Below, piece after piece: positions 8,762 through 46,836 of a DNA stretch of 64,000 bases (position 1 is its first letter; each line of letters begins with the position of its first letter). The notes beneath the pieces are model-generated. The model did no database searches. It saw only the letters and a program-made list of their open reading frames with translations, and was not told where the DNA came from. This stretch comes from a virus: the UHGV virus genome UHGV-0072281. One strand, given 5' to 3'. The position numbers and the translations under genes are program-made.

Positions 8762-8763
8762 AC

Positions 8764-11152: not shown

Positions 11153-11357
11153 ACTTGATGATTTTTACCGGTAATGGAGGACAAAGCAAACTTTTATCAA
11201 GACTTAGCAAACCAAAATCATGAAAACGCGAAATTGAACATCGCTTTCACGTTAGAAGATGATGTATTAAAACCAGGGCAATAGTAACCCGCTTATAAAA
11301 AATTGGGGGGTAAACTACTCTCCTGATCTTTTAGCTCCCGATAGAGAATTAAATATC

Positions 11358-30335: not shown

Positions 30336-30350
30336 GGAAAGGTGTGGGTA

Positions 30351-31016
30351 ATGGAGAAGCTTCAATATAAACGTTTAGACAATAAGTGGTTTGTATTAAC
30401 GGAGGATTACCATTATCCGTTTACGTTACGTGAGATTTATCACGACCACGTACACTTAGACCGTGCGGTTTATTTAACGGGTGTATTGCCTGACACGCAA
30501 CTGTGGTTAACAGCACCTAAAGGGTTCGTTACTGATTTAGCGTCAATTCCTGAACACCTCCAGGGAATTTTCCATCCTGACGGACCGTGGGCACCTGCGG
30601 CCTGCATTCACGACTTACTGTATCAAAAATGTAACACGGAGCGTAGCTATCCCATGACACCGGGTGGTAACGTTTCGCGTATTATCGATAAAGAGTTCTC
30701 TGACTTAACATTCCTGCGTATTATGCAGTCGTTGGAAATCTCACCGTATATCTGCCAAACGTTTTATAAAGCCGTGGCGGGGTTCGGTTGGGATGCTTAC
30801 GTAGACCCTAACGCGAAACCGTCTTATACCACTAACGATTACCGTACGTTAGATTACAATCGAAACTATTTGTTCGTTCGTGAGTTTAAGGAGCCTGCTA
30901 TTCCTGACCACGAACGTGTTGATATCACCACAGGTTGTCCCGTTAATGTCAAATACCTGAACATCAAACGGGCTTTTCTGTCTGGGAGGGAAGATGTTTC
31001 ATCCAAATCCGAGTAA
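30351..31016 (+). CDS. DUF1353-like protein
   Basis: Motif FVTDLASIP resembles the TDxASIP block of DUF1353 (from memory); ATG 30351 with AAGGAAAGG RBS (track begins at GTG 30342). Confidence 0.45.
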   Translation: MEKLQYKRLDNKWFVLTEDYHYPFTLREIYHDHVHLDRAVYLTGVLPDTQLWLTAPKGFVTDLASIPEHLQGIFHPDGPWAPAACIHDLLYQKCNTERSYPMTPGGNVSRIIDKEFSDLTFLRIMQSLEISPYICQTFYKAVAGFGWDAYVDPNAKPSYTTNDYRTLDYNRNYLFVREFKEPAIPDHERVDITTGCPVNVKYLNIKRAFLSGREDVSSKSE

Positions 31017-31579: not shown

Positions 31580-31625
31580 CAAAATAAGCCTACCCTCCTG
31601 CTAAGCAGGAGGGTATTTATTATTC
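31580..31625. terminator. Bidirectional rho-independent terminator between convergent genes
   Basis: Hairpin accctcctgc-taa-gcaggagggt flanked by A-run upstream and T-run downstream. Confidence 0.75.
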
Positions 31626-32099
31626 TACCGGGTGCAGCATAGTGCCGGTATCCGGAATGCTGCCTTCGTGACATCTGAAGAACGTTACACCTTTACCTTC
31701 ACCCGTTTTGTAGCTGATGCTAGAATAGGCAAACGTTGGGGTTTTTGACAGTAACCCGTTTACACGGTAATAGCGCTCACCGGTAACGACGTTTAAGTTA
31801 CTGTCCACCTTACCTAACAAATCTTTATAAAGTTGCGGAGATTCGATTTTACCTTCGTTCCATGTAGCGACCCAATTCGCCCCTGTATCCATGACTAACA
31901 CCGAAAGGGGCATCAGTTTTAGACTAGACGGTACCGGTTTAAAATCCACGAATTCTTGAGAAGCACCTGTACAGGTGTAAATGACCATATCGTGTTGGTC
32001 AACAGGTACGGTGGAGAACTGACCTTCTGCGTTCGGCTGAATAGCACAACTTGCCAATGTCATTACAAAAGCAACGACCACGAGAATGCGTTTTAGCAT
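31620..32099 (-). CDS. Putative lipoprotein
   Basis: N-terminus MLKRILVVVAFVMTLASC has signal peptide plus lipobox-like LASC; lone minus-strand gene among plus-strand genes. Confidence 0.6.
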   Translation of the reverse strand: MLKRILVVVAFVMTLASCAIQPNAEGQFSTVPVDQHDMVIYTCTGASQEFVDFKPVPSSLKLMPLSVLVMDTGANWVATWNEGKIESPQLYKDLLGKVDSNLNVVTGERYYRVNGLLSKTPTFAYSSISYKTGEGKGVTFFRCHEGSIPDTGTMLHPVE

Positions 32100-32237
32100 A
32101 ATCTCACCCTTATTAAAATTAAGAAAAAATATTTTTTCAGGTTAGCGCCTACTGCCAACCGTCATATCTATATTTTACGAAATGTCTAAAATAACATTCT
32201 TATGCAATCCACCCCTACCACTTACGAGGTAAAAACG

Positions 32238-32768
32238 ATGGCTAAAGCCTTCAATCAGCAGCTTATCGAAGCTGTAAAAGCCAAAAACCCTGAAACTTCT
32301 TCTAATCTAACCGTAGAAGACGTTGACTTTGGTGCCGTGGAAGCACATAGCGGAAATGGTGGCCGTAACACCAAAGTTACGCTGACTGCAAAAGAAGAAA
32401 GTGCTAACTTTACTGGCAGCAAAGAATTCCACTACACTCGTCTGGCTTCCCAAGACTTGATCGGTGCCAAAGCTTACGAACAAGCTGGTAATCTCGATCT
32501 GGAAAACTCAGCCATCGTAACCAAACTCAACGAAGAAATGGTTACTAAAGGTTATACCGACGACGCGTTTGTCGAAAATGAACTGACAATTGAGAAAACT
32601 GACGGCGATAGCGGTGCTAAAGTTTACACTATCAAAGTAAAAGATGCCCACATCAAATTCTTGACCGGCACCATTGCCACTTTCACTTATACCAACCCAG
32701 CGCCTGAAAAAGTAGCCCTTAGCGGTCTGGAAGGTGAACTTGATGGCTTCACAGCCCCAAAAGACTAA
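32238..32768 (+). CDS. Hypothetical protein, first of three tandem paralogues
   Basis: ATG 32238 with GAGG RBS (track begins 32202); shared core ..NTKVT(L/M)TA...S.NF.G...(L/F).Y.RL....GELDGF(T/K). Confidence 0.6.
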   Translation: MAKAFNQQLIEAVKAKNPETSSNLTVEDVDFGAVEAHSGNGGRNTKVTLTAKEESANFTGSKEFHYTRLASQDLIGAKAYEQAGNLDLENSAIVTKLNEEMVTKGYTDDAFVENELTIEKTDGDSGAKVYTIKVKDAHIKFLTGTIATFTYTNPAPEKVALSGLEGELDGFTAPKD

Positions 32769-32819: not shown

Positions 32820-33359
32820 ATGGATAGTCAAGCTACTAACCAAATGCAGCTAGTCGAGTTATATAACGCTGCCAACACTGGTTTGCCGCACAAATTGGTG
32901 TCGTCTGAAGTAAAATTTGGTCTGCCCTCTGCAAACGACGACGGTGAAAAAAATACCAAAGTTACAATGACCGCTTTACCCGGCTCAGAAAATTTCCGTG
33001 GTCAGATTGAACTTAAGTACGACCGATTAAACCCCTCCATAATTTCTGATTCTCTGGGAGTGGTCAAACTCGAGGGGGAGATAGAAAAATGGCGGGAAGA
33101 TAACTATGTTCGCGCCTATCTGCAACATTATATTAACCAAGTAAAACCCAGAGACACAATAGCCACAGGCGATATTGTTTATAGTTACGAAGAAGTAAAA
33201 GAACAGGATAAACTTGTCGCACTACGAGTTACCTGCACTGTCGCTGAAAGAAACCATAAATATCTGCAAGGCGTAATGCTTGTCTTTGAAGTTAGTCCAG
33301 AAAAGATCGATCTTTCCACCACTAACGGAGAGTTGGACGGCTTTAAACCGACCGAGTAA
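32820..33359 (+). CDS. Hypothetical protein, tandem paralogue
   Basis: 179 aa; strong similarity to 33394 gene (QM.LV.LYNAANTGLPH...KNTKVTMTAL.GSENF.G.IELKYDRL). Confidence 0.65.
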   Translation: MDSQATNQMQLVELYNAANTGLPHKLVSSEVKFGLPSANDDGEKNTKVTMTALPGSENFRGQIELKYDRLNPSIISDSLGVVKLEGEIEKWREDNYVRAYLQHYINQVKPRDTIATGDIVYSYEEVKEQDKLVALRVTCTVAERNHKYLQGVMLVFEVSPEKIDLSTTNGELDGFKPTE

Positions 33360-33393: not shown

Positions 33394-33924
33394 ATGGCAG
33401 CTACTAACCAGATGATGTTGGTCGCGTTGTATAATGCTGCTAATACTGGGCTACCGCATCAGATTACTGATAAAGAAGTGTCCTTTGGTCAACCTGTTGC
33501 GCTGGAAGGCGAAGGTAAAAACACCAAAGTTACCATGACAGCATTGGCGGGTTCCGAAAACTTTAAAGGCTCAATCGAACTGAAATACGATCGACTGGAA
33601 CCGGGTGTTGTAGGGCGTATTGAACTAACTGACGATCTGTCTCGTTGGGTAGAAGAGAACGAACTGCGAGCCTGGTTACAGTATTATATCAACAAAGTAA
33701 AACCTAACGACACGATCGCGCCGGGAGATGTTGTTTATTCTACAGAAGACCAAAAAGACGAGCATGAAAACGTTACTCTGCGAACAGTAACGTGTACCGT
33801 TACCGAAAGAAACCTCCGTTATAAACCAGGTGTAATGGCAACTTTCGTAATTACACCGAAGGTTGTCGATAATCGTATTGACCTGGCCACCACCAACGGT
33901 GAATTGGACGGTTTTACTGCTTAA
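33394..33924 (+). CDS. Hypothetical protein, tandem paralogue
   Basis: 176 aa; see previous. Confidence 0.65.
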   Translation: MAATNQMMLVALYNAANTGLPHQITDKEVSFGQPVALEGEGKNTKVTMTALAGSENFKGSIELKYDRLEPGVVGRIELTDDLSRWVEENELRAWLQYYINKVKPNDTIAPGDVVYSTEDQKDEHENVTLRTVTCTVTERNLRYKPGVMATFVITPKVVDNRIDLATTNGELDGFTA

Positions 33925-33944: not shown

Positions 33945-34000
33945 ACAAAAAAAAACAATAAGTTTACCTACCTCCTTTACGGAGGTAGGTATTTTTTATT
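33945..34000. terminator. Bidirectional rho-independent terminator between convergent operons
   Basis: A9 run, hairpin cctacctcc-tttac-ggaggtagg, T-run. Confidence 0.75.
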
Positions 34001-34670
34001 CTAATCCCATTTCCAGTGCAAGTGCACGGATAGTGTCGTAGTCACGCTGTTCAGCTAAGAGGCGAAGCTCTTTTTTCTGTGCGGTCATTTGTCCATGCAA
34101 CTTCTGATCACGTTTTACGATCTCGGACAATAATTCCTTACACTCTTCTAATGTAAAGGGTTCTAAACGTGTATTGGCGGTATCCAACCAATATTCTGGC
34201 GCAGTTTCAGATTGGATGTATTGCCCTAACATTTGTCGGGAGATTGCATCAGCCTGAAAATGACGTTCATTTAGCTGAATTGGTTCGTAACGTTGTGCTT
34301 CGTAACGCTTCTCCAACGCCATCATGATCTTTTGAACATCTAAATAAATATATCGTGCTGTTGAACGAACGTTACTTCGAATCTCATCCAGATCTATCTC
34401 CAATTTATCTGAAATGAACTCTTTTGCTTTTTTCAAGGTGAAATTTGCTTCAATATCTGACATATTGTAACTACGCATTTGATCTAACGCGTCTTCATCG
34501 GACATGCCGTCGAGTAGTTTGTAATGAAGCAGTGTACAAAAACCCGTTCTGCCGCGATCTTCAGTACCTATATGGCCCAAAAAGTTTCCGTGGCGATCAA
34601 TTGGGGAAAGTCGGCTAAAAAATCTGGCGCGAATATCTTCGTTTATTAAGCTTTTGTCAAGAGCAGGCAT
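33996..34670 (-). CDS. Hypothetical protein, last gene of the radical SAM/peptide locus
   Basis: 224-aa ORF, overlaps upstream gene by 25 nt (translational coupling). Confidence 0.55.
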   Translation of the reverse strand: MPALDKSLINEDIRARFFSRLSPIDRHGNFLGHIGTEDRGRTGFCTLLHYKLLDGMSDEDALDQMRSYNMSDIEANFTLKKAKEFISDKLEIDLDEIRSNVRSTARYIYLDVQKIMMALEKRYEAQRYEPIQLNERHFQADAISRQMLGQYIQSETAPEYWLDTANTRLEPFTLEECKELLSEIVKRDQKLHGQMTAQKKELRLLAEQRDYDTIRALALEMGLE

Positions 34671-35218
34671 TCGTCTTCTCCTTTAATTAAACCCAGCTCG
34701 ATCAGAAGATCAAAATCGATTTTACGAAACTTACTATCAAAATTTGAGTCCCAGTCAATATGTAGTCCTTGACGTTCGTCTTCTGTAAACTCGGGATAAA
34801 CTAAACTATGAAAAGTTTCCCTTTCATCGTAAAAACCATCGATGGTGGACTCTGGGTTTCGTGTGACATAAATTGTTACACCGGGAAACGATAAGCCTAG
34901 GGCGGCTACAGATTCAACACTCGGCTCTTGCAAAGCGCGTCGCAAAAGAACGATTTTATGTTTAGGGAATTCCAGCACGCGCTGTTCAAAACCTGGGTTT
35001 CGTTTCTCGATTTCAGCCACAGAAAGATCGGTAAGTTCTGTACAATACATCGGAATAACAACGGTAACTCCGTGACGAATTAATAATCGCTTAACATCGT
35101 CATTGAAATCTTCGCCGTTAATCTGTACATAACAGCCAAACAGTTTCGTAGTTTCTAAAAACTTTTCCAGAAAACGGAATTTACGCTTCGTAATATTGTG
35201 GATCAGAATTGGCTTCAT
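34646..35218 (-). CDS. Hypothetical protein in radical SAM/peptide locus
   Basis: 190-aa ORF overlapping the SPASM rSAM gene end. Confidence 0.5.
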   Translation of the reverse strand: MKPILIHNITKRKFRFLEKFLETTKLFGCYVQINGEDFNDDVKRLLIRHGVTVVIPMYCTELTDLSVAEIEKRNPGFEQRVLEFPKHKIVLLRRALQEPSVESVAALGLSFPGVTIYVTRNPESTIDGFYDERETFHSLVYPEFTEDERQGLHIDWDSNFDSKFRKIDFDLLIELGLIKGEDECLLLTKA

Positions 35219-36503
35219 CTTTGGCTTCTCTCAATTGTTTTTCTTTCTGGGCGCGTTCACGTACACAGCGAGGACAGTAACACATGCTATTATCGTGAAA
35301 ATCCTTCACGGATGTTGTGCCCATTTTCTGCTTCCAATATTCCGCAACCATCAATTTTGCAGTTGTCCAACCACACTGACGACGTTCAGCGTGATATGCT
35401 TTACGGTCTTCTAACGTCCCTTCCCCATTCTCGTAGGAAGCTGCTGCACAGCTACCACAAGCGTGTTTCATTGGACAACCTAAGCACGTCTCAGGATAGT
35501 TGGTGTATTGCGTCTGAATCTCTTCCAGCAGTTTCCCACCGTCTAAACTAACGAATTCGCGACCGACTAACTCAAATACCGCAGAGCGTGACGTTACAGT
35601 CGACATGAAACGGTTACAACCGAAAATCTTCCTGTCAAACCCTAAACAAGTCATGTGCGTTAATGTCCCGCAGAACGGGCGCAAGCGTTCCGGGTTTAAA
35701 CGTACAGTATCGTTGTAAAGTAGCTGATCACGCCAGTTCGGTTCCCAGATAGTGTCGAAATCTAACCCTTCCGGGATGATATGCGAAAGGGTATTACGTG
35801 GGTTGGTGTGTAAACCCTTTTCAACCCAATAATCGACTACATCCATCATTTGTAGCGCTATCGACGTAGCCATACTCCGTGGCATAATGTCTTCGAAGGT
35901 TACGTTACCAGAAATGGTTCCACCTCCCGCCAAATCGATTAGGGATTTCATACCCGCCGCATAATGTGGGAGTGTCTCCAAAGTAAATGTCGCTTTAACC
36001 CCAAGCTCCGCGATACCTACTTCTTTTAGATAATTGTAACCACGTACAGCGGCCTCGTAGGAACCTTCGCGACTCGTTGTAAAAATACGGTACTTATCGT
36101 GCGACTCAGGTAACCCATCAATAGATACCCCGATAGAAAGTCTGTCCTTCCAACGTTCAATAATTTCCCTGTTCAACGGCCTATCTAATAATGTCCCATT
36201 AGTAGAGATACTAAACATAAACGGACGTTTATGTTCTTCACACAACTGCTCGGCTGTTTCGAAAGCAGTCATTAGAAGCTTAGGCTGCATAAACGGTTCA
36301 CCGCCGATAATGTCAATGATGACTTCTACGTTTGGTAAATCTTTATCGCGTTCAAAGCAGGCATGAAGAAAGTCTACAATATCCGCTGCTTTGTTATTGC
36401 GGGGATATTTACGCTCGTAACAATACTCACAGTCCAAATTACACGACAAGTTTGTAACAATCTGGTAAGTCAACTGTTTCGGGTAATTATTTTCTTGGTT
36501 CAT
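35181..36503 (-). CDS. Radical SAM enzyme with C-terminal SPASM-like Cys-rich domain (putative peptide-modifying maturase)
   Basis: N-terminal CNLDCEYC (C-x3-C-x2-C), IIGGEPF glycine-rich SAM motif, C-terminal Cys clusters incl. CLGCPMKHACGSC. Confidence 0.8.
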   Translation of the reverse strand: MNQENNYPKQLTYQIVTNLSCNLDCEYCYERKYPRNNKAADIVDFLHACFERDKDLPNVEVIIDIIGGEPFMQPKLLMTAFETAEQLCEEHKRPFMFSISTNGTLLDRPLNREIIERWKDRLSIGVSIDGLPESHDKYRIFTTSREGSYEAAVRGYNYLKEVGIAELGVKATFTLETLPHYAAGMKSLIDLAGGGTISGNVTFEDIMPRSMATSIALQMMDVVDYWVEKGLHTNPRNTLSHIIPEGLDFDTIWEPNWRDQLLYNDTVRLNPERLRPFCGTLTHMTCLGFDRKIFGCNRFMSTVTSRSAVFELVGREFVSLDGGKLLEEIQTQYTNYPETCLGCPMKHACGSCAAASYENGEGTLEDRKAYHAERRQCGWTTAKLMVAEYWKQKMGTTSVKDFHDNSMCYCPRCVRERAQKEKQLREAKDEANSDPQYYEA

Positions 36504-37410
36504 TTAATACTCCACTATTACGGTTGGCCATAACCACTCGTCGAATATACTCGTAGGCTTCTAACCCGATGGAACAAGCTAATTGGTTACATCCCGATTC
36601 TAATAATCTCGGGGCATTTTGCAACTGATATTCGGTTCCATCTGCTCTTAACCATAAACTATTGCTGCATACGTTACACCCACCATCAAAAACTTTGCTT
36701 ACGACATAGTCACACCTTTTCGAGTTGGAAACATTCAGTCTTTCTATATTTTCCTGAATTCTAAAATACCCGTAAATAAAGTTCATAACGTGATCGGGAG
36801 ATAACGGTTTTGGCATATTTGCGTCTAACAGCAACGTCATGGTACGATAACCGTAGTGATAGATCGCATTATGAAGCTCAATAATGTCTTCATGCCACCG
36901 TTTGTTACCCAACTGTTCTCGAGTTAAAACGGCCCATGTATGAACATTTTCAAGCTCATGCATTACTTCTAAAGCTTCGTAGCAATCATCGCTAATAAAA
37001 CGCTTAAAAGGGCGTTCAGACAACTCAAACCCGTCGATGCTAACATATACGTTATCAAATTGTTTTAACAACGGTAGATGCGTTTTACGCATCTTTAAGC
37101 CATTGGTGTATAACTGATGTTTGAGTTCTGGGCGAACTGCTTTTAACTCGTCAACAAACGCCTCAATTTTACGAGTGGCTAACAAAGGCTCACCACCCGT
37201 CCATTGAATCTCGGTAATTGTTGGGTTAGCTTCTAACGCCTCCATAATTCGGTCACGTTGAAACTCTCGAGAAGAATCTTCACGATTCATGTAATAGGCT
37301 CCGCCGCAGAAACTACAGTCCAGATTACATTTGGATGTAGTAATAACGGCTAATATAGTTGGATTATCAAATAGCTGATCTGATAATTTTGGTTCCGCAT
37401 TGGTCGCCAT
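36487..37410 (-). CDS. Radical SAM enzyme (paralogue B)
   Basis: VITTSKCNLDCSFCGG (C-x3-C-x2-C), WTGGEPLL; C-terminal Cys residues; paralogue of 39018-39929 with blocks of perfect nucleotide identity. Confidence 0.8.
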   Translation of the reverse strand: MATNAEPKLSDQLFDNPTILAVITTSKCNLDCSFCGGAYYMNREDSSREFQRDRIMEALEANPTITEIQWTGGEPLLATRKIEAFVDELKAVRPELKHQLYTNGLKMRKTHLPLLKQFDNVYVSIDGFELSERPFKRFISDDCYEALEVMHELENVHTWAVLTREQLGNKRWHEDIIELHNAIYHYGYRTMTLLLDANMPKPLSPDHVMNFIYGYFRIQENIERLNVSNSKRCDYVVSKVFDGGCNVCSNSLWLRADGTEYQLQNAPRLLESGCNQLACSIGLEAYEYIRRVVMANRNSGVLNEPRK

Positions 37411-37432
37411 TGCAGGTGACTCCGTTAATTAT

Positions 37433-38320
37433 TTAATTATAGTCGATAGCGAACAATGGATCTTCGTCGAAATTGACTCCAGGTTTTAAAACCTTAGTCG
37501 AATTATACGCCTCTAGCAACCGATTAAGATCGTTATAACGACTATTCATTCTTTTGAGGTCTTCTAAGGTCACAATACGATCAAGCATCGGCTTAACGGC
37601 CTCGGCTTCTTCATCAGTCAATTCAACCTTAGACAACAAAAAACTAACAAGTTTAGAAATATCAGCCTCGGTTACTGGACTTTGGCCAAATCGTATTTGA
37701 ACAAGATGTTGCATCCATGGTTTACGAATACGCTTCGTAATAACATGCTCATCAGTAATGGCTTTCCAAACAGAACGTTCACGAATCCATTCGAACTTAT
37801 AGCTATAGGCCATTAAATCAGCTAAATGTGCAATCCCGAGGTCCTGATAACCTTCAATGTTGGTGTATGGTTCACTGTCGGAATACTCTTCAACATCCTT
37901 ACCAACAAGAGTATAGTAATACGGAAAAGCCCCCATGTAATCTGGACTCCACCATCTCCGAACCATAGGCTTAGCGTCAAGCTCAGCAAACGGTGTAAAA
38001 AAAAGTTCTAAATCGCTACCAGCATTTAGAACTCCGTCACTGAAGAAGTATTTACCATCAACAATCATTCCATAAAGTTCATCATCTCCTGTAAAAACTA
38101 TCACACGTTCGACCGGCAGATCACGAATTGTAAAAGTATTTTCTACAGAGATATTATCACGGTTGACGATATCACGACCCCGTAATTTCGGCCATTCGCC
38201 AGGTAGCATGGTAATTAAACGAACGTCGTCACTTAAATGATAACGTACAGAATCTGGAGAAGAGATTTGCAAAGGATGGTTAAATGTAGTGTTATATGCT
38301 AAATGTAAATCGTTTTTCAT
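37433..38320 (-). CDS. Hypothetical protein between precursors and radical SAM gene
   Basis: 295-aa ORF; no recognisable motif. Confidence 0.55.
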   Translation of the reverse strand: MKNDLHLAYNTTFNHPLQISSPDSVRYHLSDDVRLITMLPGEWPKLRGRDIVNRDNISVENTFTIRDLPVERVIVFTGDDELYGMIVDGKYFFSDGVLNAGSDLELFFTPFAELDAKPMVRRWWSPDYMGAFPYYYTLVGKDVEEYSDSEPYTNIEGYQDLGIAHLADLMAYSYKFEWIRERSVWKAITDEHVITKRIRKPWMQHLVQIRFGQSPVTEADISKLVSFLLSKVELTDEEAEAVKPMLDRIVTLEDLKRMNSRYNDLNRLLEAYNSTKVLKPGVNFDEDPLFAIDYN

Positions 38321-38343
38321 TGAATACCTCTGACACGTTTCTA

Positions 38344-38553
38344 CTACTTATTACCGCCAGCACCACGGCTACAACTACCGCTACAGGACCAGCTACACCC
38401 ACCGTTACAGTTATAGTGACTCAACGGTAAACCAGAAAGGTTATTAGTGGACGACACCGTACCCTGGTTTGCAATATAGTTGTTTGCTCCTGCTGTGGTA
38501 ATGTATCCTTCCGCCGTTACTAATCTGTCGCGTATGTTTTTAAGACTTATCAT
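38344..38553 (-). CDS. Cys-rich precursor-like peptide A (leader + short CxxxC core)
   Basis: 69 aa: leader MISLKNIRDRL...HYN then core CNGGCSWSCSGSCS; conserved leader and junction shared with B and C. Confidence 0.65.
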   Translation of the reverse strand: MISLKNIRDRLVTAEGYITTAGANNYIANQGTVSSTNNLSGLPLSHYNCNGGCSWSCSGSCSRGAGGNK

Positions 38554-38556
38554 TTC

Positions 38557-38955
38557 TCATCTTCCCGTACACGATTGCGAACAGCCACCATGACAGGTAC
38601 GACTACATGTACCTGTACATGTAGTCGTACATTGACCTATACATGTCCCCGTGCACCCACCAGAACATGAACTAGTACAACCTGAACATCCAGAACTACA
38701 ACCAGAAACACAGTTTGCTGAACATGAGGAACCACAACCTCCAGAAGCATTACCGGTACAACCACCAGAACAACTGGAGCACGTCCAGCTACAGCTACCA
38801 CCACAGTCGTAATGATTTTTAGGTTGCCCGCCAAATAGGTCGACATTATTCGTAGCCTTTCCACGAATATAGTTCTGTACTGCTCCAGTGTTTTTTAGCG
38901 CGGAAGAATCTATATTATCCAAGCGCGCTTTTAAAGAAGATAAACCAATCGCCAT
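38557..38955 (-). CDS. Cys-rich precursor-like peptide B (leader + long CxxxC-periodic core)
   Basis: 132 aa: ~50-aa leader then ~80-aa core with about 20 Cys at regular 4-residue spacing in G/S/T background, beginning DCGGSCSWTCS. Confidence 0.7.
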   Translation of the reverse strand: MAIGLSSLKARLDNIDSSALKNTGAVQNYIRGKATNNVDLFGGQPKNHYDCGGSCSWTCSSCSGGCTGNASGGCGSSCSANCVSGCSSGCSGCTSSCSGGCTGTCIGQCTTTCTGTCSRTCHGGCSQSCTGR

Positions 38956-39017
38956 TTTAACACCTACTGGTTCAGTGCCAGCTAAGGCACATTATAATTC
39001 ATTCTCTGTAAAAAATA

Positions 39018-39929
39018 TCACAATTTTGCCGGAATCCTATTCTTAGCCCCTACTACTCGTCGTATATAATCGTAAGCATCTAAGCCAACCTTTCTGGCTA
39101 AGTCACTACAGCCATGTTGCGTTACGATTTCAACGTTTTTTACTTGATTCTGGACACCGTCAGACTCGATACGTAAACAACGACTACATGTATTACAGGG
39201 TTCATCAAATAACGCGTTTAGCGTAAACGCGCACTCGCTTCGATTGGACGAATTCAGTCTTTCTATATTTTCCTGAATTCTAAAATACCCGTAAATAAAG
39301 TTCATAACGTGATCGGGAGATAACGGTTTTGGCATGTTTTTGTCCAAAACTAGCGACATCTCGCAAAAACCGTAATGGTAGATGTGATTATGTAGCGCAA
39401 TTATATCCTCATACCAGCGTTTATCACCGATACGTTCTCGTGTCAAGACTGCCCAGGTACGAATATTTTTCAATTCGTAAATTGTCTCCAACACCTCGTA
39501 TTGTTTTTCTTCGATAATCCGCATAAATGGACGCTCTGATTCTTTGAATCCGTCCATGCTAAAAAAGATGCTATCGAAACCCTTTAACAACGGTAGATGC
39601 GTTTTACGCATCTTTAAGCCATTGGTGTACAGGTAATGATCACAGCGAGGATACTTCTCCCTTATCTCTTCTATAAGGGCATCAATTTTACGCGAAGCGA
39701 GTAATGGTTCACCTCCCGACCACTGAATATTTGTGATGGTCGGGTTATTTTCCAGCGCCTCGATAATACTTTTCTTTTGTACTTCTGCGGTTGTATCCTC
39801 TCTATGCATGTAATAGGCTCCGCCGCAGAAACTACAGTCCAGATTACATTTGGATGTAGTAATAACATTTAACGTTCTTGGTTCAGAATACAATTGATCG
39901 GATACTGTCGGTGTGGTTAACTCTATCAT
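39018..39929 (-). CDS. Radical SAM enzyme (paralogue C)
   Basis: VITTSKCNLDCSFCGG, WSGGEPLL; immediately downstream of precursor C. Confidence 0.8.
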   Translation of the reverse strand: MIELTTPTVSDQLYSEPRTLNVITTSKCNLDCSFCGGAYYMHREDTTAEVQKKSIIEALENNPTITNIQWSGGEPLLASRKIDALIEEIREKYPRCDHYLYTNGLKMRKTHLPLLKGFDSIFFSMDGFKESERPFMRIIEEKQYEVLETIYELKNIRTWAVLTRERIGDKRWYEDIIALHNHIYHYGFCEMSLVLDKNMPKPLSPDHVMNFIYGYFRIQENIERLNSSNRSECAFTLNALFDEPCNTCSRCLRIESDGVQNQVKNVEIVTQHGCSDLARKVGLDAYDYIRRVVGAKNRIPAKL

Positions 39930-39953
39930 CAGTAATAGTACCTATCTGTTAAA

Positions 39954-40346
39954 TTAAGTCGGTCCTGAACAAGACGCACATGCGCCACTACATCCCGAGC
40001 TACAACGCCCGGAGCATCTACCACTGCATGTAGCGCTGCAACCAGTGCACCCACCAGAACACGTAGCGCTGCAACCAGTGCATTGATTACCGCAGGCGGA
40101 TGAACAGCTTCCAACACACACTGAGGTGCACGTACCAGAACAACTTGTACAACCATGCGTACAACCGTTCGAGCACGTCCAGCTACAGCTACCACCACAG
40201 TCTAATCGACCCGGTGTCCAGCCTGAAAAAGAATCTGCGGCATTGTGAGCTTTTGATGCAACCTGTGGATCGACGCGGGGTCCTGTCGCCATTTGATTCT
40301 CTACGTTGGTGATTCGATCGCGAACGTTTTTAACACTAATCGCCAT
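39954..40346 (-). CDS. Cys-rich precursor-like peptide C (leader + long CxxxC-periodic core)
   Basis: 130 aa: leader MAISVKNVRDRI...GRLD then core CGGSCSWTCS... with about 21 Cys; AAGGA RBS. Confidence 0.7.
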   Translation of the reverse strand: MAISVKNVRDRITNVENQMATGPRVDPQVASKAHNAADSFSGWTPGRLDCGGSCSWTCSNGCTHGCTSCSGTCTSVCVGSCSSACGNQCTGCSATCSGGCTGCSATCSGRCSGRCSSGCSGACASCSGPT

Positions 40347-40412: not shown

Positions 40413-41618
40413 TTATTTCGTACCCGCTTCCGCCTGTACGTCATCACGAGACGTCAAGTTAGCGTTAACGTGTACTGGGGCCTGAACCACACCACCGTAT
40501 TTCTTGTGGAGATAACCGGTATGTGGGTTATCTGCCGCAATGTGGTTTTGTAGGTTCTGGTTCGCCTGACTGATTGCGTTCGTGTTGTTAGCAACTTGCT
40601 TTTTGAGCGCATCCAGGTTCTGTTGTAACTGATCGATTTTCTGATCGGTTTCTTGACCCTGTTGCTCTAACGCGTCAACACGCTGAATAACCTGATTCAG
40701 TTTCGTGTTCAAATCGTTAATGCTCTTTTGCAGCTGTAACACTAACGAGTTCAGGTTCGCTAACGCTAAAGCCATTTTCTGGTAGTTTTGAGCAACCACG
40801 TTAAGTTGGTCGTTCCACGCTTCCAGAGAGTTGACAACAGCGTCAATACGCTTACCTAAAGCTTCATCTGCTTTCTTCAGTGCATTGATTTCCGTAATCG
40901 TTGCGTCGATAGCAGACTGGACGTCACGAATAAGCGCACGGATTTCAGTTTCTGTTAACCCGTTAACCTGATGAATATCAAGATGGTGAACGTTACCGGT
41001 TGCGTTAATGTGTGCATTTAAAGCGTCTAAGAAGTCATTTTTCAGGCTTTCTAAAATCGCTTTAATGTTCTCTAACTGTACCGCGTCACCAGAACTGATC
41101 GCATCTTTAATACCCGCCAATACGGTAATGATATATTCAAAACCGTAAATATCACCTACGTCTTTATACGTCGGTGCAGAAGGGAATGTATCTGGTACGT
41201 TACGCAGGTCTTTAAACGCAACCGTACGGTTATCGAGGTTTAATTCAGCAATCGCCTGTTCGATAGCCACGATGTTCGCAGACTGTGGGCCACCAACGAC
41301 CTGCGCAGATACCGTAATATCTGTTGGAATCGCTGTGTTAGTGACCACCACCGCCATAACAATCTCGCGGTTTTTAGTCAGCTTTTCATAAGTCGGGTGT
41401 GCAAAAATCAACTCATAATCGGTACCACGTTCGTAGGTTGCATCCGGTCGGTTAGCAACGCGTAAACGGAACGTGTCCGCAAAGAACGGGCCGTCAGGAA
41501 AAGCAAAAGCACGGTTTACTTTACCTGTACCTAACGTAATCTGACGCTCCACAGCGTTAGACGTTAGCGAGCCCGTTAAATCTAAAGGATATTGATAAAC
41601 AATGGAGGCCATGGCCAC
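40413..41618 (-). CDS. Fibre-like structural protein with N-terminal shared anchor module and coiled coil
   Basis: 401 aa; N-terminal block (FPDGPFFADTFRLRV...GTDYEL) shared with the three giant proteins upstream; long heptad-like segment; C-terminal NPH motif. Confidence 0.6.
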   Translation of the reverse strand: MAMASIVYQYPLDLTGSLTSNAVERQITLGTGKVNRAFAFPDGPFFADTFRLRVANRPDATYERGTDYELIFAHPTYEKLTKNREIVMAVVVTNTAIPTDITVSAQVVGGPQSANIVAIEQAIAELNLDNRTVAFKDLRNVPDTFPSAPTYKDVGDIYGFEYIITVLAGIKDAISSGDAVQLENIKAILESLKNDFLDALNAHINATGNVHHLDIHQVNGLTETEIRALIRDVQSAIDATITEINALKKADEALGKRIDAVVNSLEAWNDQLNVVAQNYQKMALALANLNSLVLQLQKSINDLNTKLNQVIQRVDALEQQGQETDQKIDQLQQNLDALKKQVANNTNAISQANQNLQNHIAADNPHTGYLHKKYGGVVQAPVHVNANLTSRDDVQAEAGTK

Positions 41619-41652: not shown

Positions 41653-44600
41653 TTAAGATGTAAACATAAGATTGAACTGGAGTTTGTCGATATCGCGAGT
41701 TTCTGCTGGATTCACGCCGTCGTACGCGGTCGCTACGTAAACCGTTAGCGTACCGTCAGCGTACGAGGATATTACCGGTGGGTTAGTTCCGGTCTGACCA
41801 TCTCGCACAATGAGTGCAGGCTCGCTGGGAAGATTATCAAACTGCCCTTTAACCGCTTTGTATACCAAACCGGACTGTGCAGATAACTCCGTGTCTGTGT
41901 ACACACAGAACGGTGTATCGATGTCAGCTTGTTTGATAGTGGTACCGGATTCGACATCAACCAACTGTACTGCTCCAAACTTCGTGCGATAACTTTCATA
42001 TTCGTTCTTCGGAATAACAAAAGTAACGTGAACACGAACTTCTTCAGCGGGCTTAAAGCCAGTATGTTCTTTTTCCAAATACTGGTTGGCTGATAGTGTC
42101 ACTTTTTGTTCGGCCATCGAACCACCTGCCTGATTTATTCCGTACCGGGCTTCAACAATACCGGTTGGTGCAGCAAGTCGCAATTTCAGAGTCCGATTCG
42201 CCGTTCCTGGATTACCTGGCACTTGAACGCGCAAACTCAATGCTAAGTAAGCATACGTTCCGGTAGTCGGTTTCGTATACGCACCTATCCATTTCATGTT
42301 CGCAGACGCTGCCTGCGTGTTCTCAGAAGCAATGGCTGTCGTAATGTTAGCAGCTACCGCTTTCTGCCAGAATTGGTCGGCGCAGTTCTCATACGCTACT
42401 CTGGCCACGCTCTTATAACCCGAATACGTTTCCTGAATTGGTAACTTAGGACGCGTCGTGATGCCAGACAATGAACCCCATTTTTGACCGTCAACATACC
42501 CTTCGCCCTTCGACGCAGCCGCCGTAGGTGCTTTAACGGGCTTGTTAACCAGGGTTAATAGAGGACCCGTCTTTCTGTCAAACGCTGCTGCTACATCGTG
42601 TTGGTCGATAATTGCTGCGTGGTCTTCCAGCTCTTTCACACGACCCAAGCGTTTTACTTTGTCGATACTGATATCAGTAATACGGCTGGAATCGGTGGTT
42701 ACTGTCCCGACGAACAGTCTCGTTGAAGTATCGGCTAACTGCTCCAAACCGATGCGGTATTGTGCGGTAGAATCCGACACCTCAGCGTGCACGTAGAACG
42801 TCTGGTTAGCGTGATTGGACGGGAACTCGCTGCTTAAATCCACAGACCACGTTGGGAGTGTGTAGCTGCTGCTACCGAAGTCTAATTTGACTTCTTCTGT
42901 CAAATACAGAATCCAACCTTCCGCTGTCTCCACACCAGCAATAATAACCGCCTGACCACCGGTTGAGAACGTCGTGTCGTTAACGAACTCTGCGGCTGTA
43001 TACGCGTTACCTGAACAGAAAACACGGTCAGCTTTAGAGAAAATCAACGCCATCTTGTCCCAATTACCGGCACCCATATAGCATCCAGATTCTGGGTTAT
43101 GCGCAGGAGCCATCTGACGTAACTGCGACTTACCAGGAACGCGAGACCAACCTGAACCTGGGTCGTAGGTATACTTCGCGGCGTAACCTAGTGCGTTTAA
43201 GTCCCCGATATTTCGGATAGTTAACGTATAAGGTAGCCAGATACCGAAGTTAGTTCCATCCGCAGAAGCGAAAATAGGCTGTCCGACGCGACGGGTCTTA
43301 TTACCAGCCTCCTCTCTTAACGACTGATAACTTAAACCGTAGTCTTTATCCAGGAACCAATCCACCAACTTAAAGTTAGCGGAGTTGAACCGTAAGTAAC
43401 CATTCTCTTTAGATGGACTCACCATGAAGTAATAGATGTCAAGAATTCGACGACCGTTACTTAAGGTTTTCATGCACGAAACTTGCAACAAGTCAAATTC
43501 GCACACGGTGTTGATACCCAACATCCAAAGAGCAAACAATGCATTACCGGTTTGATGGGCAGCACTAATACGTTCGTTCGCGTATCCGTTCGCTTGGCCA
43601 GAAGGTGCACCGTCAACGATCATCCGAATCATTTTCTGTCGATCGGCTTCTTCTAGCGTTAAGCGTTCGGAAGACAACGCGAAGTTACCGTAGATGTTAC
43701 GATACGGGAACGTTTCTGCTTTGGTCAAATACCAACCGTTTAACTGTCCGTGACGCTCCTCAGGAGTCATGCACGCAGCCATACAGCTAAGCTGCTCATA
43801 TAGCGTTGGATCGACTTCACGACGGTTGTTGTTCGGACCGTATCCGCTATAACCCGGAACATCGTAAGGTTTGTTCGGATCAACTTCTACTTCGATGGTG
43901 TAACGGTTACGTGGGTTAGACATCCACACTTTGTTCGAACCACCAATCCCAACAGGATGGGAAAGACCAATGGTATAAATAGAACCACGACCTTTATCCC
44001 AGGTAAACGTTCCTTCGCCTGAGGTATTGTTTGGGTTATCGTAACGCAGATAATCGAAAAATTCTTTGCCTTGTGTTCCTTTAATAGAAACGTTAGGCAT
44101 TTGGTCCGCGTCGTTAATCTGCCAGCAGGAAAGCATCATTCCTGTTCCATTAGGCTTAGCGTACGTTGCAAAACAACGATTGTTTGCTTGACCACCGCCC
44201 CACTTACGGCTGGTTTCTACAGTTGAACCATCCGCGAAAGAGAGTGTAGTAGCATCAGCCTTGATGGGAAAGCGTTCGCGGCCTTCTAACGTAACCTTGC
44301 CCGTCGACGTATCGATTGTAAAACTTGTTGCCCACTGACGAAAGTTAATTTGTGAGCTGTCAGCCGCTGCAAACCACACAGTAGGCATATGGTTCACACG
44401 AATCACGCCGTCGCGCACTGCACAAGCATGGTTACATTCTGGACCGTGAACAAAGTTGCAACCAATTGTCCATTTAGCCCGTGCTTCCGGCGTCAAATAC
44501 GTAAAGAACTGACCCGTTTGTGACTCTTCGGTTTTCTGGCCAATGCGTAGGCAGAGGTTATCTCCGAATTGTCCCATCTCCCCGTTTAGTGTTACGCGTT

Positions 44601-46836
44601 CAAACTCCAGCGTGGTGCTAGTAGACAAATCGTCCTTACGTAGACGCCAAGCTGCTACTGCGTAAGCAGAGTTATTTACCGTAGAGCGGAGAAGATAAAC
44701 GTAATCCTCAACCAACACAACATCATCGGCTTCTGGCCACGGATTCCAGGTTTGTTCCACAGTACCGCTGGGGTTGCCGTTACGGTACACGGGCATCGTA
44801 ACGCGACATACCACCGTGTGTTTAGTGTGATCCATCGAACCATTAAACAACACCAAATAACGGTTATTATCAGAACCCAGACAAATAATCGCTTCCTGAC
44901 CACCGATCAATATAGCTTTCAGGGTCACTCCAGGATATTTACTCATCCCGGCAGGGTGATATTTCACTGAGGTCTGCTGCGGATTTACAAACGCGTTTGA
45001 CGTGTTAATGTCAGCATAGCCGTAATAAATGGCTTCTGTACCCGGTACGCCGTTAGAACCGTTACGGAGCGAATAAACCTTACCCTGCTGATACCCAACA
45101 ACCCCTTTTTGATAAGACTGGTTTTTGGTATAACCCGAATAGTTACCTAGCGCTGGGATAGGTAAGAAGTTCTTGTTACCGAACTTCGCACCACCTACCG
45201 TCCACGCCGGTAAGATGGTATTCAGTTTATCAGAGACTTTCTTAATCTCTTTTGCGAACAGCCACCCTTGACGCGACGTGACAGCTTTATCGTTAGTAGT
45301 GTCAATCGCATCCCAGAGCTGCAAGATACCGTCAACCGATGCACTACCAATTGGAATGTTATCCAAGTCAGCAGTGGTGTGTGTATGCGTCTTCAAACTC
45401 TTGTTTTTCAACACGTTCGTTAACGCTTTCGTCACCGGCTTAGCACTTGGCGTGGTGTTATCCATCTTATCGGTACCGAAATCGGTTTTCGTTAAGGTTA
45501 ACACCATACTGTCGCCTACCTTAACAAACCCTTTACCGTTAACGGTATAGTCATCGTCAACGTACAGGTCCAAGCGGTCTTTTAATTCGGTTACGGCTTT
45601 CTGGGAGATAGCAGTACCTAACGCCGCAGACGTGGAGATATTCGTAATCGAGAACAACCCATAAACTGATTCGGTCGCTGTGGGAATATTCGCGTTTAAC
45701 GTAACCGGGTTAGTCTGTTTTGCGGTACCGTACGGTTTTACAGTGTCTGACGCTTTGAAATACGCGTTTGCTTCGAGCAACGTTACTGACGTCAGGTACA
45801 TGTTCACCATTTCTGGCGTAACCAGATACACGGAGTTATAAACCGGCGCTAATACATCCTGTTCTGACCCCGAGTGAACCCAAAGCGTATTCAGACCCGC
45901 ACTGAATTCAACCGCTAAACCTGATTCGTTGTTGTCCTGGTCTGCTTTAATCACCAACGGTTGTGGCGAGGTAATTAACCACTTATCACCGCGAATACTG
46001 ATGATGTGGCCACCTGACGTTTTAAACGTTAATTCAATACCGTTAGTAGTGCCCCATCGACCGTAAACAGTACCGAGGGCTTCACCCATTAACTGGTCAA
46101 CGTCTGATTGCTCAATACCCGCTGAACCCATCAGCGTAGCCAACTCGTCAATCGTCAACCCAAACGCTTTTGTAGCGTCAACAGCGCGGCCTAATACCGG
46201 GAGAGCAGCAATGTCGTCAGTGGTATAATGATGAGCGTTAGGATTCCGGTGGTGTTGGTATAACTCTTCGTCGAAAACCTTTTTACCGTTCTCGTAAATC
46301 AGGTTAGTAACTTCACTAAACGCAGCATCTAACTCTGTAGAACGCTTAATGATTTTCTTACGAATGTCTTCTAACGCCTTAACAACCTCATCTCTCAGAA
46401 TAGCTTCTTCTAAGTTAGCAGGCGGGTCGATTGGTTGAATAACCGGCGCATACGCCATTAGTTCAGACCAGTCCACGTTACGTGGGTCTTTCAGGTCAGT
46501 ACGAACTAAGAACTTCCCGATTTCAGATTGCGGTACACGATATTGACGTGCTACCCCTAAAATCTCATATTCGATTTCTGTTGCAGTAAGCAACATAAAC
46601 CCGCCGTAAATCTGATCTTGTTCAGCTTCTGCGAGTTCTTTAAAGTAATAGCCTAAATAGTAGTCCAACCCCTCAATCAGAGTACGACGTCCGTTAGGCG
46701 CGGTATCGTCGGCTACTGTGAGTTTTAATCCGATACGATAAAAAGGTCCTTCAGGTGGAATGACCACGTTAAATCGGTTAGGGTACGTTGCTGTGCTTAG
46801 CGTACCGTTAAACTGCGCCGCGTCTTCTCTCGGCAT
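41653..46836 (-). CDS. Giant tail fibre / tail spike-like structural protein
   Basis: 1727 aa; N-terminal block PPEGPFYRIGLKL...GLDYYL homologous to neighbours; AGGAG RBS. Confidence 0.65.
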   Translation of the reverse strand: MPREDAAQFNGTLSTATYPNRFNVVIPPEGPFYRIGLKLTVADDTAPNGRRTLIEGLDYYLGYYFKELAEAEQDQIYGGFMLLTATEIEYEILGVARQYRVPQSEIGKFLVRTDLKDPRNVDWSELMAYAPVIQPIDPPANLEEAILRDEVVKALEDIRKKIIKRSTELDAAFSEVTNLIYENGKKVFDEELYQHHRNPNAHHYTTDDIAALPVLGRAVDATKAFGLTIDELATLMGSAGIEQSDVDQLMGEALGTVYGRWGTTNGIELTFKTSGGHIISIRGDKWLITSPQPLVIKADQDNNESGLAVEFSAGLNTLWVHSGSEQDVLAPVYNSVYLVTPEMVNMYLTSVTLLEANAYFKASDTVKPYGTAKQTNPVTLNANIPTATESVYGLFSITNISTSAALGTAISQKAVTELKDRLDLYVDDDYTVNGKGFVKVGDSMVLTLTKTDFGTDKMDNTTPSAKPVTKALTNVLKNKSLKTHTHTTADLDNIPIGSASVDGILQLWDAIDTTNDKAVTSRQGWLFAKEIKKVSDKLNTILPAWTVGGAKFGNKNFLPIPALGNYSGYTKNQSYQKGVVGYQQGKVYSLRNGSNGVPGTEAIYYGYADINTSNAFVNPQQTSVKYHPAGMSKYPGVTLKAILIGGQEAIICLGSDNNRYLVLFNGSMDHTKHTVVCRVTMPVYRNGNPSGTVEQTWNPWPEADDVVLVEDYVYLLRSTVNNSAYAVAAWRLRKDDLSTSTTLEFERVTLNGEMGQFGDNLCLRIGQKTEESQTGQFFTYLTPEARAKWTIGCNFVHGPECNHACAVRDGVIRVNHMPTVWFAAADSSQINFRQWATSFTIDTSTGKVTLEGRERFPIKADATTLSFADGSTVETSRKWGGGQANNRCFATYAKPNGTGMMLSCWQINDADQMPNVSIKGTQGKEFFDYLRYDNPNNTSGEGTFTWDKGRGSIYTIGLSHPVGIGGSNKVWMSNPRNRYTIEVEVDPNKPYDVPGYSGYGPNNNRREVDPTLYEQLSCMAACMTPEERHGQLNGWYLTKAETFPYRNIYGNFALSSERLTLEEADRQKMIRMIVDGAPSGQANGYANERISAAHQTGNALFALWMLGINTVCEFDLLQVSCMKTLSNGRRILDIYYFMVSPSKENGYLRFNSANFKLVDWFLDKDYGLSYQSLREEAGNKTRRVGQPIFASADGTNFGIWLPYTLTIRNIGDLNALGYAAKYTYDPGSGWSRVPGKSQLRQMAPAHNPESGCYMGAGNWDKMALIFSKADRVFCSGNAYTAAEFVNDTTFSTGGQAVIIAGVETAEGWILYLTEEVKLDFGSSSYTLPTWSVDLSSEFPSNHANQTFYVHAEVSDSTAQYRIGLEQLADTSTRLFVGTVTTDSSRITDISIDKVKRLGRVKELEDHAAIIDQHDVAAAFDRKTGPLLTLVNKPVKAPTAAASKGEGYVDGQKWGSLSGITTRPKLPIQETYSGYKSVARVAYENCADQFWQKAVAANITTAIASENTQAASANMKWIGAYTKPTTGTYAYLALSLRVQVPGNPGTANRTLKLRLAAPTGIVEARYGINQAGGSMAEQKVTLSANQYLEKEHTGFKPAEEVRVHVTFVIPKNEYESYRTKFGAVQLVDVESGTTIKQADIDTPFCVYTDTELSAQSGLVYKAVKGQFDNLPSEPALIVRDGQTGTNPPVISSYADGTLTVYVATAYDGVNPAETRDIDKLQFNLMFTS

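Follow-up and report, generated by a model that had tools for sequence, protein, structure and literature searches.

Three proteins of a radical-SAM cassette in jumbo phages as candidate helpers in the maturation of cysteine-rich tail-fibre components

We analyzed three genes, referred to as A, B and C, within a 64,000-nucleotide stretch of the virus genome UHGV-0072281 (hereafter the window, to whose positions all coordinates refer unless another locus is named). These genes belong to a cassette of radical S-adenosylmethionine (rSAM) enzymes and Cys-rich proteins with CxxxC repeats, which is located in an operon that opens with tail-fibre genes. We judge the chances to be about even that the three products are cytoplasmic, non-structural maturation and assembly helpers for CxxxC-rich fibre components cross-linked by the rSAM enzymes. 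The finding is of greater interest at the level of the whole cassette than as three orphan genes. The three genes are as follows.

Protein A, 37433-38320, minus strand: 295 amino acids (aa); orphan fold; gene always flanked by the Cys-rich gene(s) on one side and the rSAM pair on the other.
Protein B, 34646-35218, minus strand: 190 aa; predicted rSAM-like (β/α)6 half-barrel without an Fe-S motif; jumbo-phage clade only.
Protein C, 33996-34670, minus strand: 224 aa; clade-specific N-terminal domain followed by a C-terminal DUF4376; predicted to be of the tail-fibre-assembly-chaperone type.

A, B and C are real genes rather than chance open reading frames (ORFs), because each matches a PHROG family of unassigned function from end to end (A, phrog_8030, 4.8e-136; B, phrog_7988, 2.3e-56; C, phrog_8169, 3.1e-88), one and the same set of 62 phage records, out of 50,697, carries all three as well as the N-termini of the Cys-rich proteins, and the gene order is invariant across 16 loci from at least three genera. 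Relatives of the larger rSAM enzyme (rSAM440) with at least 60% identity were found in 61 records, essentially the same set. The orthologues of A, B and C are carried by jumbo phages of Erwinia, Salmonella, Escherichia, Cronobacter and Proteus. The window itself derives from an SPN3US-like (Seoulvirus-related) jumbo myovirus known from metagenomes only; two IMG/VR contigs (L005 and L006) are 96–100% identical to it in protein sequence, and a near-identity DNA search of the phage collection gave no match, with no close GenBank phage at the DNA level.

An earlier reading of the letters and their ORFs (the sequence-only reading) had given the coordinates and lengths of the three genes, together with their co-orientation with the rSAM genes, exactly; all three lie on the minus strand, as do three rSAM genes. 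Its claim of translational coupling is plausible for B, which overlaps the rSAM440 gene by 38 nucleotides (nt), and for C, which overlaps B by 25 nt; A, however, is only closely spaced, lying 23 nt downstream of Cys-rich gene 3 and 22 nt upstream of the gene for the smaller enzyme rSAM307, without overlap. The rSAM440 and rSAM307 genes overlap by 17 nt. The remaining features of the displayed operon are listed below.

41653..46836, minus strand: baseplate/tail-fibre protein, 1727 aa; SPN3US gp168 orthologue (49% identity); first gene of the displayed operon.
40413..41618, minus strand: tail structural protein with coiled coil, 401 aa; SPN3US gp167 orthologue; phrog_2163 'virion structural protein' (2.5e-103).
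39954..40346, minus strand: Cys-rich protein 1 (Cys1), 130 aa; phrog_6085 (2.2e-40).
39018..39929, minus strand: extra small rSAM enzyme, 303 aa; PF04055 (2e-13); rSAM307 paralogue.
38557..38955, minus strand: Cys-rich protein 2 (Cys2), 132 aa; phrog_6085 (1.4e-38); weak matches to the CXXX-repeat families TIGR04114/TIGR04117.
38344..38553, minus strand: Cys-rich protein 3, 69 aa, with four Cys; phrog_6085 (1.7e-24); 91% identity to an unannotated SPN3US ORF.
36487..37410, minus strand: small rSAM enzyme rSAM307, 307 aa; SPN3US gp164 orthologue; PF04055 (9.7e-14); CX3CX2C motif and C-terminal Cys pairs.
35181..36503, minus strand: rSAM/SPASM-type maturase rSAM440, 440 aa; SPN3US gp163 orthologue; phrog_1802 (9.3e-115).
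33965..33991, between converging genes: bidirectional terminator-like hairpin with an 11-bp stem, immediately 3' of the C stop codon; end of the operon.

All three proteins are acidic and soluble (isoelectric points, 4.9–5.3), with maximum 19-residue Kyte–Doolittle hydropathy values of 0.82, 1.32 and 0.44 for A, B and C, respectively, and by this measure no transmembrane segment or signal peptide was found in any of them. A PADLOC search with A, B and C gave no match, and no transporter or peptidase gene is present within the operon. A scan for sigma-70 promoters remained at background level, a result of no relevance here, since the phage has RNA polymerases of its own.

Comparison of related loci revealed that the cassette is exchanged as a block. 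Between the window and locus L007, the fibre, gp167, DUF7941, lipoprotein, DUF1353 and endolysin proteins were 92–98% identical (fibre, 96%), whereas those from Cys1 through C were 53–85% identical (B, 53%; C, 71%). Between L007 and L008, the cassette was 89–100% identical (C, 89%; remainder, 95–100%) and the fibre C-terminus 77%. Against L009, the window showed identities of 69% for A and 61% for C, yet 93% for rSAM440 and 92% for Cys1, indicating mosaicism within the cassette. The cassette (33996-40346) exists as at least three 'alleles' with 53–93% protein identity in backbones that are 90–99% identical (versus L007, L008 and L009), and the recombination breakpoints lie exactly at Cys1 and just past C. 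Over 120 locus pairs, the identity of C correlated with those of rSAM440, A and Cys2 (rho 0.90–0.91), compared with rho values of 0.57 and 0.22 for the last 500 and 250 residues of the fibre, and the C-terminal part of the gp168 orthologue varies independently of the cassette. The cassette from Cys1 to C is thus one exchange unit that is independent of the tip of the large fibre, and its allelic pattern resembles that of diversifying host-recognition modules. A residual co-variation analysis, meant to match A, B or C to specific partners, yielded no information.

The same core was found in phages with other tails. Locus L038 (IMGVR_UViG_2791355308_000003) is a P2-like tail module with gpV, gpW (PF04965), Baseplate_J and Tail_P2_I followed by a tail fibre (6049-7203), which has a PF12571 N-terminal domain (1.8e-40) and whose last ~45 residues form a Cys-rich CxxC/CxxxC repeat (the fibre ends in ...GCNGCSGSCSGSCSSGCTACSGCSGSCSG...). 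This natural fusion demonstrates that the Cys repeat can form part of a fibre polypeptide. After the fibre come an A-like protein, a SPASM rSAM, a small rSAM, a DUF1353 protein and the tail sheath. In P2-like genomes, the slot directly downstream of the fibre gene is normally occupied by a fibre assembly gene, and in L038 the rSAM block occupies this slot. In locus L062, a T7-type tail fibre (PF03906) is followed by a 76-aa Cys-rich ORF overlapping by ATGA, in which the region ahead of the repeat is just 13 residues long, and then by an A homologue, a small rSAM, a SPASM rSAM, a second fibre-like protein, a PF16778 tail assembly chaperone and a T7-like terminase. A four-gene core (CxxxC protein, A, small rSAM and SPASM rSAM) is accordingly tied to tail-fibre genes in three virion architectures. 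The sequence-only reading had regarded the three genes as functionally part of the rSAM/Cys-rich locus, and this view is borne out by their strict co-occurrence, their exchange as one recombination unit and the location of A homologues beside the same rSAM pair.

More distant enzyme relatives showed a similar arrangement. For rSAM relatives with 24–26% identity in gut phages of ~110–200 kb, a CxxxC protein precedes the rSAM in 21 of 23 loci; in one of these phages (L019), the pair belongs to the same PHROGs as in the window (phrog_6085 and phrog_1802) and is located among Ig-domain tail and tail-fibre proteins. Many CXXX-repeat/rSAM pairs were also found in tail modules of Firmicutes prophages (the L063-L141 set; e.g. 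L132 at 3295-9863, L105, L139, L066 and L134), typically in the order Baseplate_J, Mu Gp48, PF12571 fibre, Cys-rich protein, a variable ~180-aa protein, rSAM and a GH25 or amidase lysin. The Cys-rich proteins of Firmicutes share a conserved ~95-aa N-terminal domain (LKxxVKxExxRR...GS..Y.G..Y), to which the N-termini of the jumbo-phage Cys-rich proteins bear no detectable relation when compared with this domain in Firmicutes and gut-phage proteins. Likewise, the spacer proteins in the 'A position' of gut and Firmicutes phages showed no detectable relation to A, B or C; these proteins and the non-Cys parts of the substrates are lineage-specific. In bacterial genomes, a long CxxxC ORF was present at 58 of the 80 related loci scanned, and 25 of these 58 have Baseplate_J, PF12571 fibre or lysin genes within 7 kb (phage-marker calls with Pfam confirmation for ten proteins). 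No phage markers were found at the loci from Bacteroidota and Ignavibacteria (with TAT-like signals) or from Anaerococcus and Peptoniphilus (with 731-aa fused enzymes). The enzyme family thus serves both phage-tail and non-phage contexts.

With respect to the enzymes, the best NCBIfam matches of rSAM440 were TIGR04115, a CXXX-repeat maturase (1.3e-34, below cutoff), and PapB (1.8e-32), and it also matched TIGR03906 (1.6e-15). The rSAM307 protein was aligned with the small rSAMs of L038 and L062. The extra 303-aa rSAM, which is inserted between Cys-rich genes 1 and 2, is 63% identical to rSAM307; a second small copy is present only in this lineage (L005/L006), the other related loci carrying one. 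It has the look of a recently duplicated paralogue that perhaps serves a single substrate. As for the substrates, a conserved N-terminal region of ~49 residues is common to the Cys-rich proteins, in which it precedes the repeats, and their Cys content is 15–16%. Cys1 and Cys2 contain 20–21 Cys spaced by 3–4 residues; Cys1, which is conserved in all related loci, consists of a 49-residue N-terminal region followed by 21 Cys at CxxxC/CxxC spacing. The sequence-only reading had treated the substrates as small peptides, which is doubtful, since in other phages they are proteins of 150–380 aa or the C-terminus of a bona fide tail fibre.

Protein C provides a link to fibre assembly. Residues 120-209 (window 34044-34313) match the Pfam domain DUF4376 (PF14301; 1.4e-6, 29.2 bits against a gathering threshold of 25 bits), a match shared by 14 of 15 C family members (best, 9.4e-12), and a precomputed PF14301 annotation is present on 14 of the 15 true C orthologues listed first. 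The sequence-only reading, which saw no recognisable motif in the three proteins, was therefore wrong for C. DUF4376 is confined to the C-terminal 90 residues of a two-domain layout, and the lineage-specific region ahead of it (residues 1–110) had no match outside the clade. There is also a weak match of C to a tail-fibre family (phrog_1807). Searches of PDB sequences with C, as a single sequence and as a profile, returned only noise, with no sequence-detectable match to solved Tfa structures. C is the last gene of the operon, ten genes (~7 kb) downstream of the large fibre gene. Published proteins with this domain act as intermolecular chaperones of tail fibres, in which DUF4376 has been described as a conserved C-terminal Tfa module behind a variable client-binding N-domain: gp27 of the Alteromonas phage V22 is essential to its fibre, A5 gp9 transiently caps its fibre, and the H-fibre of the CJIE1 prophage is functional only upon co-expression of the downstream DUF4376 gene (PMC7289586, PMC10579305, PMC7882524). 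On the strength of its domain match, we classify C as a predicted Tfa-type protein.

The structural model of A was confident and had no structural match, and PDB sequence searches with A and B, as single sequences and as profiles, returned only noise. The conserved core of A comprises residues ~151-271 (window 37508-37870), A itself is devoid of Cys, and neither Cys, His nor Ser is invariant among 34 sequences. A hidden Markov model of A detected a homologue in L062, a Thalassospiraceae metagenome-assembled genome (hhalign probability 96.6%, E 5.8e-10, over A residues 151-271; tblastn of the L062 homologue against jumbo-phage A, 5e-8), and the L038 A-like protein matches the L062 homologue over its full length (BLASTP, 3e-17). 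When the L038 protein was the sole query, a genome-wide scan found nothing and a viral scan found only itself. The A family (phrog_8030 with the L038 and L062 proteins) thus has a homologous C-terminal core and a gene located between the Cys-rich ORF and the rSAM pair, beside a tail-fibre gene.

For B, the confident model predicts a partial rSAM-like (β/α)6 TIM-barrel core, whose fold is closest to rSAM cores. However, the CX3CX2C motif is absent, the three Cys of B lie in no cluster motif and none is conserved across the family, and B did not match Pfam (including PF04055), NCBIfam or PDB sequences or show sequence similarity to any rSAM or pseudo-SAM family; its hhalign probabilities with the neighbouring rSAM enzymes were 0.1–1.2%. 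Because it lacks the motif, conserved Cys and any profile similarity to these neighbours, we do not call B a member of the radical SAM superfamily; as judged from the model, it is rSAM-fold-like and lies outside the superfamily. The idea that B is a decayed paralogue of the local rSAM enzymes was rejected on the same hhalign values, and only the fold resemblance was retained; a 'GEDF ~ GGEP' resemblance was dropped, as it is not conserved in distant B members. An exhaustive HMMER search with B found 29 representatives in 1.84 billion proteins, all stand-alone and mostly of 170–204 aa, with a few shorter partial matches. Close homologues share the invariant stretch SVAEIEKRNPGFExR...P.HK, but across 23 diverse members S66 is the sole near-invariant residue and RNPG is semi-conserved.

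Virion proteomics of SPN3US provides an indication of where these proteins reside. In that phage, gp167-gp171 are tail proteins: gp168 was assigned to the tail by mass spectrometry (MS) of tailless particles, and gp167 is present in virions and missing from tailless particles. The orthologues of C (gp161), B (gp162) and the SPASM rSAM (gp163) are listed as 'Non-virion' with trace peptide-spectrum matches, four for gp161 (PMC10052503 supplement); gp161 is not on the Table S4 virion list, and the A orthologue gp165 was never detected in SPN3US virions. A role of A, B or C as virion structural proteins was rejected on these grounds, the evidence being that of the SPN3US orthologues rather than of the window's phage. 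The idea of the sequence-only reading that one of the three might be a partner attaching modified peptides to the virion survives in part: C is of the fibre-chaperone type and the cassette resides in tail-fibre modules, but the status of gp161, gp162 and gp165 does not support a structural partner. The Cys-rich proteins themselves could not be detected in the SPN3US MS, because their genes are mis-annotated and the searches used fixed carbamidomethylation of Cys.

Several reference annotations of this region are in error. SPN3US gp166 (111 aa) was called in the wrong frame, and the three real Cys-rich ORFs (130, 134 and 68 aa; 11192-12221 of locus L001, from SPN3US NC_027402; JN641803 complement 143828-144220, 143413-143817 and 143191-143397) are unannotated; in the related phage loci, Kwan gp183 (L003, 6979-7849) and CR5_157 (L004, 7237-8048) represent Cys-rich genes called on the opposite strand. 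For gp164 of SPN3US (264 aa; L001, 9346-10260), the start given in the annotation removes the CX3CX2C motif; with tblastn, 304 residues align up to 10260, which places the true start ~40 codons upstream.

Taken together, these observations can be accommodated by the following scheme. The Cys-rich proteins would be fibre-associated components, acting as tip or adaptor, in whose CxxxC repeats the rSAM enzymes install intramolecular cross-links in the cytoplasm; by analogy with the nearest enzyme families, these would most likely be Cys-derived thioethers. The chemistry is a prediction from the nearest families, the CXXX-repeat maturase and PapB, both matched below cutoff. The rSAM enzymes begin directly with the CX3CX2C motif and hence have no N-terminal recognition element (RRE) of the type known for peptides that are made by ribosomes and then modified post-translationally (RiPPs). 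A may be a dedicated partner of the rSAM pair that stands in for this domain, with its conserved C-terminal half docking the enzymes and its lineage-specific N-terminal half holding the substrate. B, which may be translationally coupled with the SPASM enzyme, could be a cluster-less rSAM-fold protein acting as a non-catalytic subunit or scaffold. C would be a chaperone of the Tfa type, binding its client through a variable N-domain ahead of the conserved DUF4376, which oligomerises the matured Cys-rich proteins or mounts them on the fibre and then departs. As regards the cassette as a whole, we tentatively propose, as a real but somewhat doubtful possibility, that it represents a previously unrecognised and widespread way of building host-recognition fibres, in which CxxxC-repeat tips or adaptors are covalently knotted by rSAM enzymes before assembly in jumbo, P2-like, T7-like and Firmicutes or gut phages.

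A number of results weigh against this scheme. The score of rSAM440 to TIGR04115, although its best-scoring family, is 120.2 bits against a curated cutoff of 350, so that even the reaction of the enzyme is a prediction. The location of the Cys-rich proteins in the virion is likewise a deduction, as the SPN3US MS was blind to them, and many bacterial relatives of the enzymes are found in non-phage contexts that are RiPP-like or involve secreted proteins. A test of A as an RRE revealed no PqqD-like winged-helix β3-α3 fold, and the link between A and the L038 protein is weak when taken alone (hhalign 40%) and depends on transitivity via L062. B and C are absent from non-jumbo cassettes and are therefore not essential to the core chemistry. 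Finally, C lies ~7 kb from the large fibre gene, and another client, such as gp167 or a DUF7941 protein, is conceivable.

The reading favoured by the sequence-only reading was a classical RiPP pathway, in which the Cys-rich ORFs encode leader-plus-core precursors of a diffusible peptide (a toxin, signal or host-takeover factor) released at lysis, and A, B and C serve as leader peptidase, export or handling factor, and immunity or self-protection protein. In its favour are the nearest enzyme families, which are RiPP maturases (CXXX-repeat, PapB, SCIFF and others), the conserved ~49-residue region preceding the Cys repeats, and the many bacterial relatives that, with no phage genes in the vicinity, adjoin Cys-rich peptides of 60–80 aa or Cys-rich proteins bearing a TAT signal. 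Nevertheless, we consider it improbable. A leader peptidase is not supported, given the lack of conserved catalytic Cys, His or Ser in A and B, in which only S66 of B is near-invariant, with respect to the Cys/His, Ser/His/Asp and HExxH mechanisms covered (aspartic and glutamic mechanisms lie outside). The soluble, acidic character of the three proteins, devoid of hydrophobic segments and signal peptides, speaks against an export factor, and the same property and the empty PADLOC search against an immunity protein; nor does the operon contain a transporter or peptidase. Moreover, C is of the fibre-chaperone type, the cassette lies inside the tail-fibre modules of at least four unrelated phage groups, the L038 repeat is within the fibre polypeptide, and the 'leader' in L062 would be as short as 13 residues. 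An intracellular role, in which the Cys-rich proteins are metal- or Fe-S-handling, metallothionein-like, redox or anti-defence effectors assisted by A, B and C, appears very unlikely. Such a role would fit the very high Cys content, the fact that these proteins have so far not been seen in virions, and the many host-takeover genes carried by jumbo phages. It does not fit the constant position in the tail modules of unrelated phages, the fusion of the repeat to the L038 fibre, the module-like allelic exchange typical of host-recognition genes, the absence of PADLOC matches or the DUF4376 chaperone at the end of the cassette.

Two further readings, each unlikely but less so than those above, concern individual proteins. 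C might be a chaperone of the gp168- or gp167-type fibres, with A and B unrelated to rSAM chemistry (e.g. acting in virion assembly or host interaction) and grouped with it by late co-expression. DUF4376 chaperones normally serve the upstream fibre of the same operon, C ends an operon that opens with fibre genes, and non-jumbo cassettes are without B and C, all of which agree with such loose neighbourhood. However, C diverges in step with the cassette rather than with the fibre or its tip, both between the window and L007 and between L007 and L008; the breakpoints coincide with the two ends of the cassette; A is found beside the same rSAM pair in P2-like and T7-like contexts; and the B gene overlaps that of the SPASM enzyme. 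Alternatively, B could be an active, non-radical small TIM-like barrel (a hydrolase, isomerase or transferase) acting on the Cys-rich proteins to attach or take off an additional modification. The invariant stretch in close homologues, with S66 near-invariant and RNPG semi-conserved family-wide, is in line with activity; against it stand the single near-invariant residue in 23 diverse members, without a conserved acid/base or metal-binding constellation, and the lack of a Pfam, NCBIfam or PDB sequence match.

If the proposed scheme of cross-linked fibre components is true, radical-SAM chemistry, so far tied to cofactors, RiPPs and a few enzyme subunits, would also mature virion receptor-binding structures. 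This would account for the rSAM genes within the tail modules of many phages and prophages, give part of the orphan 'CXXX-repeat' rSAM family a new interpretation, and imply that a sizeable share of the systems predicted by bioinformatics as 'CXXX-repeat rSAM targets' are devoted to virion maturation rather than to natural-product pathways. It would add three accessory protein families: A would found a new family of RRE-independent partners that present substrates to a two-rSAM module, B would be a phage-specific pseudo-radical-SAM subunit, and C would be a chaperone of the Tfa type that was recruited to clients cross-linked after translation. It would also point to a source of unusually stable, engineerable fibre tips. 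SPN3US, for which amber-mutant genetics and virion proteomics are already established, offers a system for such work. We found nothing relevant in the searchable literature on rSAM enzymes acting on tail fibres, in jumbo phages or with a CXXX-repeat cassette, and an rSAM cassette beside the tail-fibre genes of unrelated phages has apparently not been described previously.

The surroundings of the cassette contain several further genes of interest. A predicted lipoprotein of 159 aa (31620-32099, minus strand) has a hydrophobic N-terminus followed by a Cys. It diverges in parallel with the large fibre (rho 0.82) and the C-terminal 250 residues of the fibre (rho 0.63), compared with rho 0.14–0.35 for the Cys-rich genes, A, the rSAMs and B and 0.50 for C. 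This brings to mind lipoproteins that mask receptors or exclude superinfection, T5 Llp being an example. Five paralogous DUF7941 proteins flank the cassette (28240-29088, 29102-29581, 32202-32768, 32820-33359 and 33394-33924), and their copy number varies between closely related phages. A 2026 preprint on phage Goslar proposed an extended 'fibre cloud' that is built of DUF7941 proteins and serves to recognise the host; unlike this proposal, SPN3US gp160 of the same family was assigned to the head by MS. A DUF1353 protein (30342-31016), named 'tail assembly chaperone' in RefSeq, is located near the cassette in jumbo phages; its gene directly adjoins C in CR5 and relatives (L004, L016 and L017) and follows right after the rSAM pair in L038 (10047-10412). 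Possibly the DUF1353 protein also belongs to the cassette, as a component with a wider distribution.

We compared the cassette and its products with known systems. C resembles the DUF4376 chaperones V22 gp27, A5 gp9 and the CJIE1 partner, which have been described as TfaMu-like, in its C-terminal DUF4376 behind a lineage-specific N-domain, in the position of its gene at the 3' end of a fibre operon, and in the non-virion status of its SPN3US orthologue gp161, as intermolecular chaperones leave the fibre (PMC7289586, PMC10579305, PMC7882524). It differs from them in that a ~6-kb rSAM/Cys-rich cassette parts it from the fibre genes and that it co-evolves with the cassette rather than with the fibre tip. 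Compared with cluster-less rSAM-like proteins, such as the structural-genomics 'PFL-AE domain' 3CAN and the pseudo-SAM/SPASM family TIGR04347, B shows no sequence similarity and is a 190-aa stand-alone protein of one phage clade. A has in common with stand-alone, PqqD-like RREs the placement of its gene between precursor and enzymes.

As in the TIGR04115/TIGR04114 and PapB-type ranthipeptide systems, the substrates of the cassette contain CxxxC/CxxC repeats and are encoded beside the enzyme, and both families are the best matches of rSAM440. However, the scores are far under the family cut-offs, the cassette adds a second small rSAM together with A, B and C, it has no peptidase or transporter, and its substrates are proteins or a fibre C-terminus inside phage tail modules. 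In the quinohemoprotein amine dehydrogenase system, the rSAM/SPASM enzyme QhpD cross-links the small Cys-rich subunit QhpC, which later becomes part of a protein complex. The jumbo-phage cassette differs in its CxxxC repeats, in the proposed virion-fibre destination of its products and in having no QhpE/QhpG-type partner, such that the analogy is functional only; nevertheless, TIGR03906 is one of the matches of rSAM440, and QhpD/QhpC sets a precedent for an rSAM enzyme that introduces thioether cross-links into a structural subunit and not into a secreted peptide.

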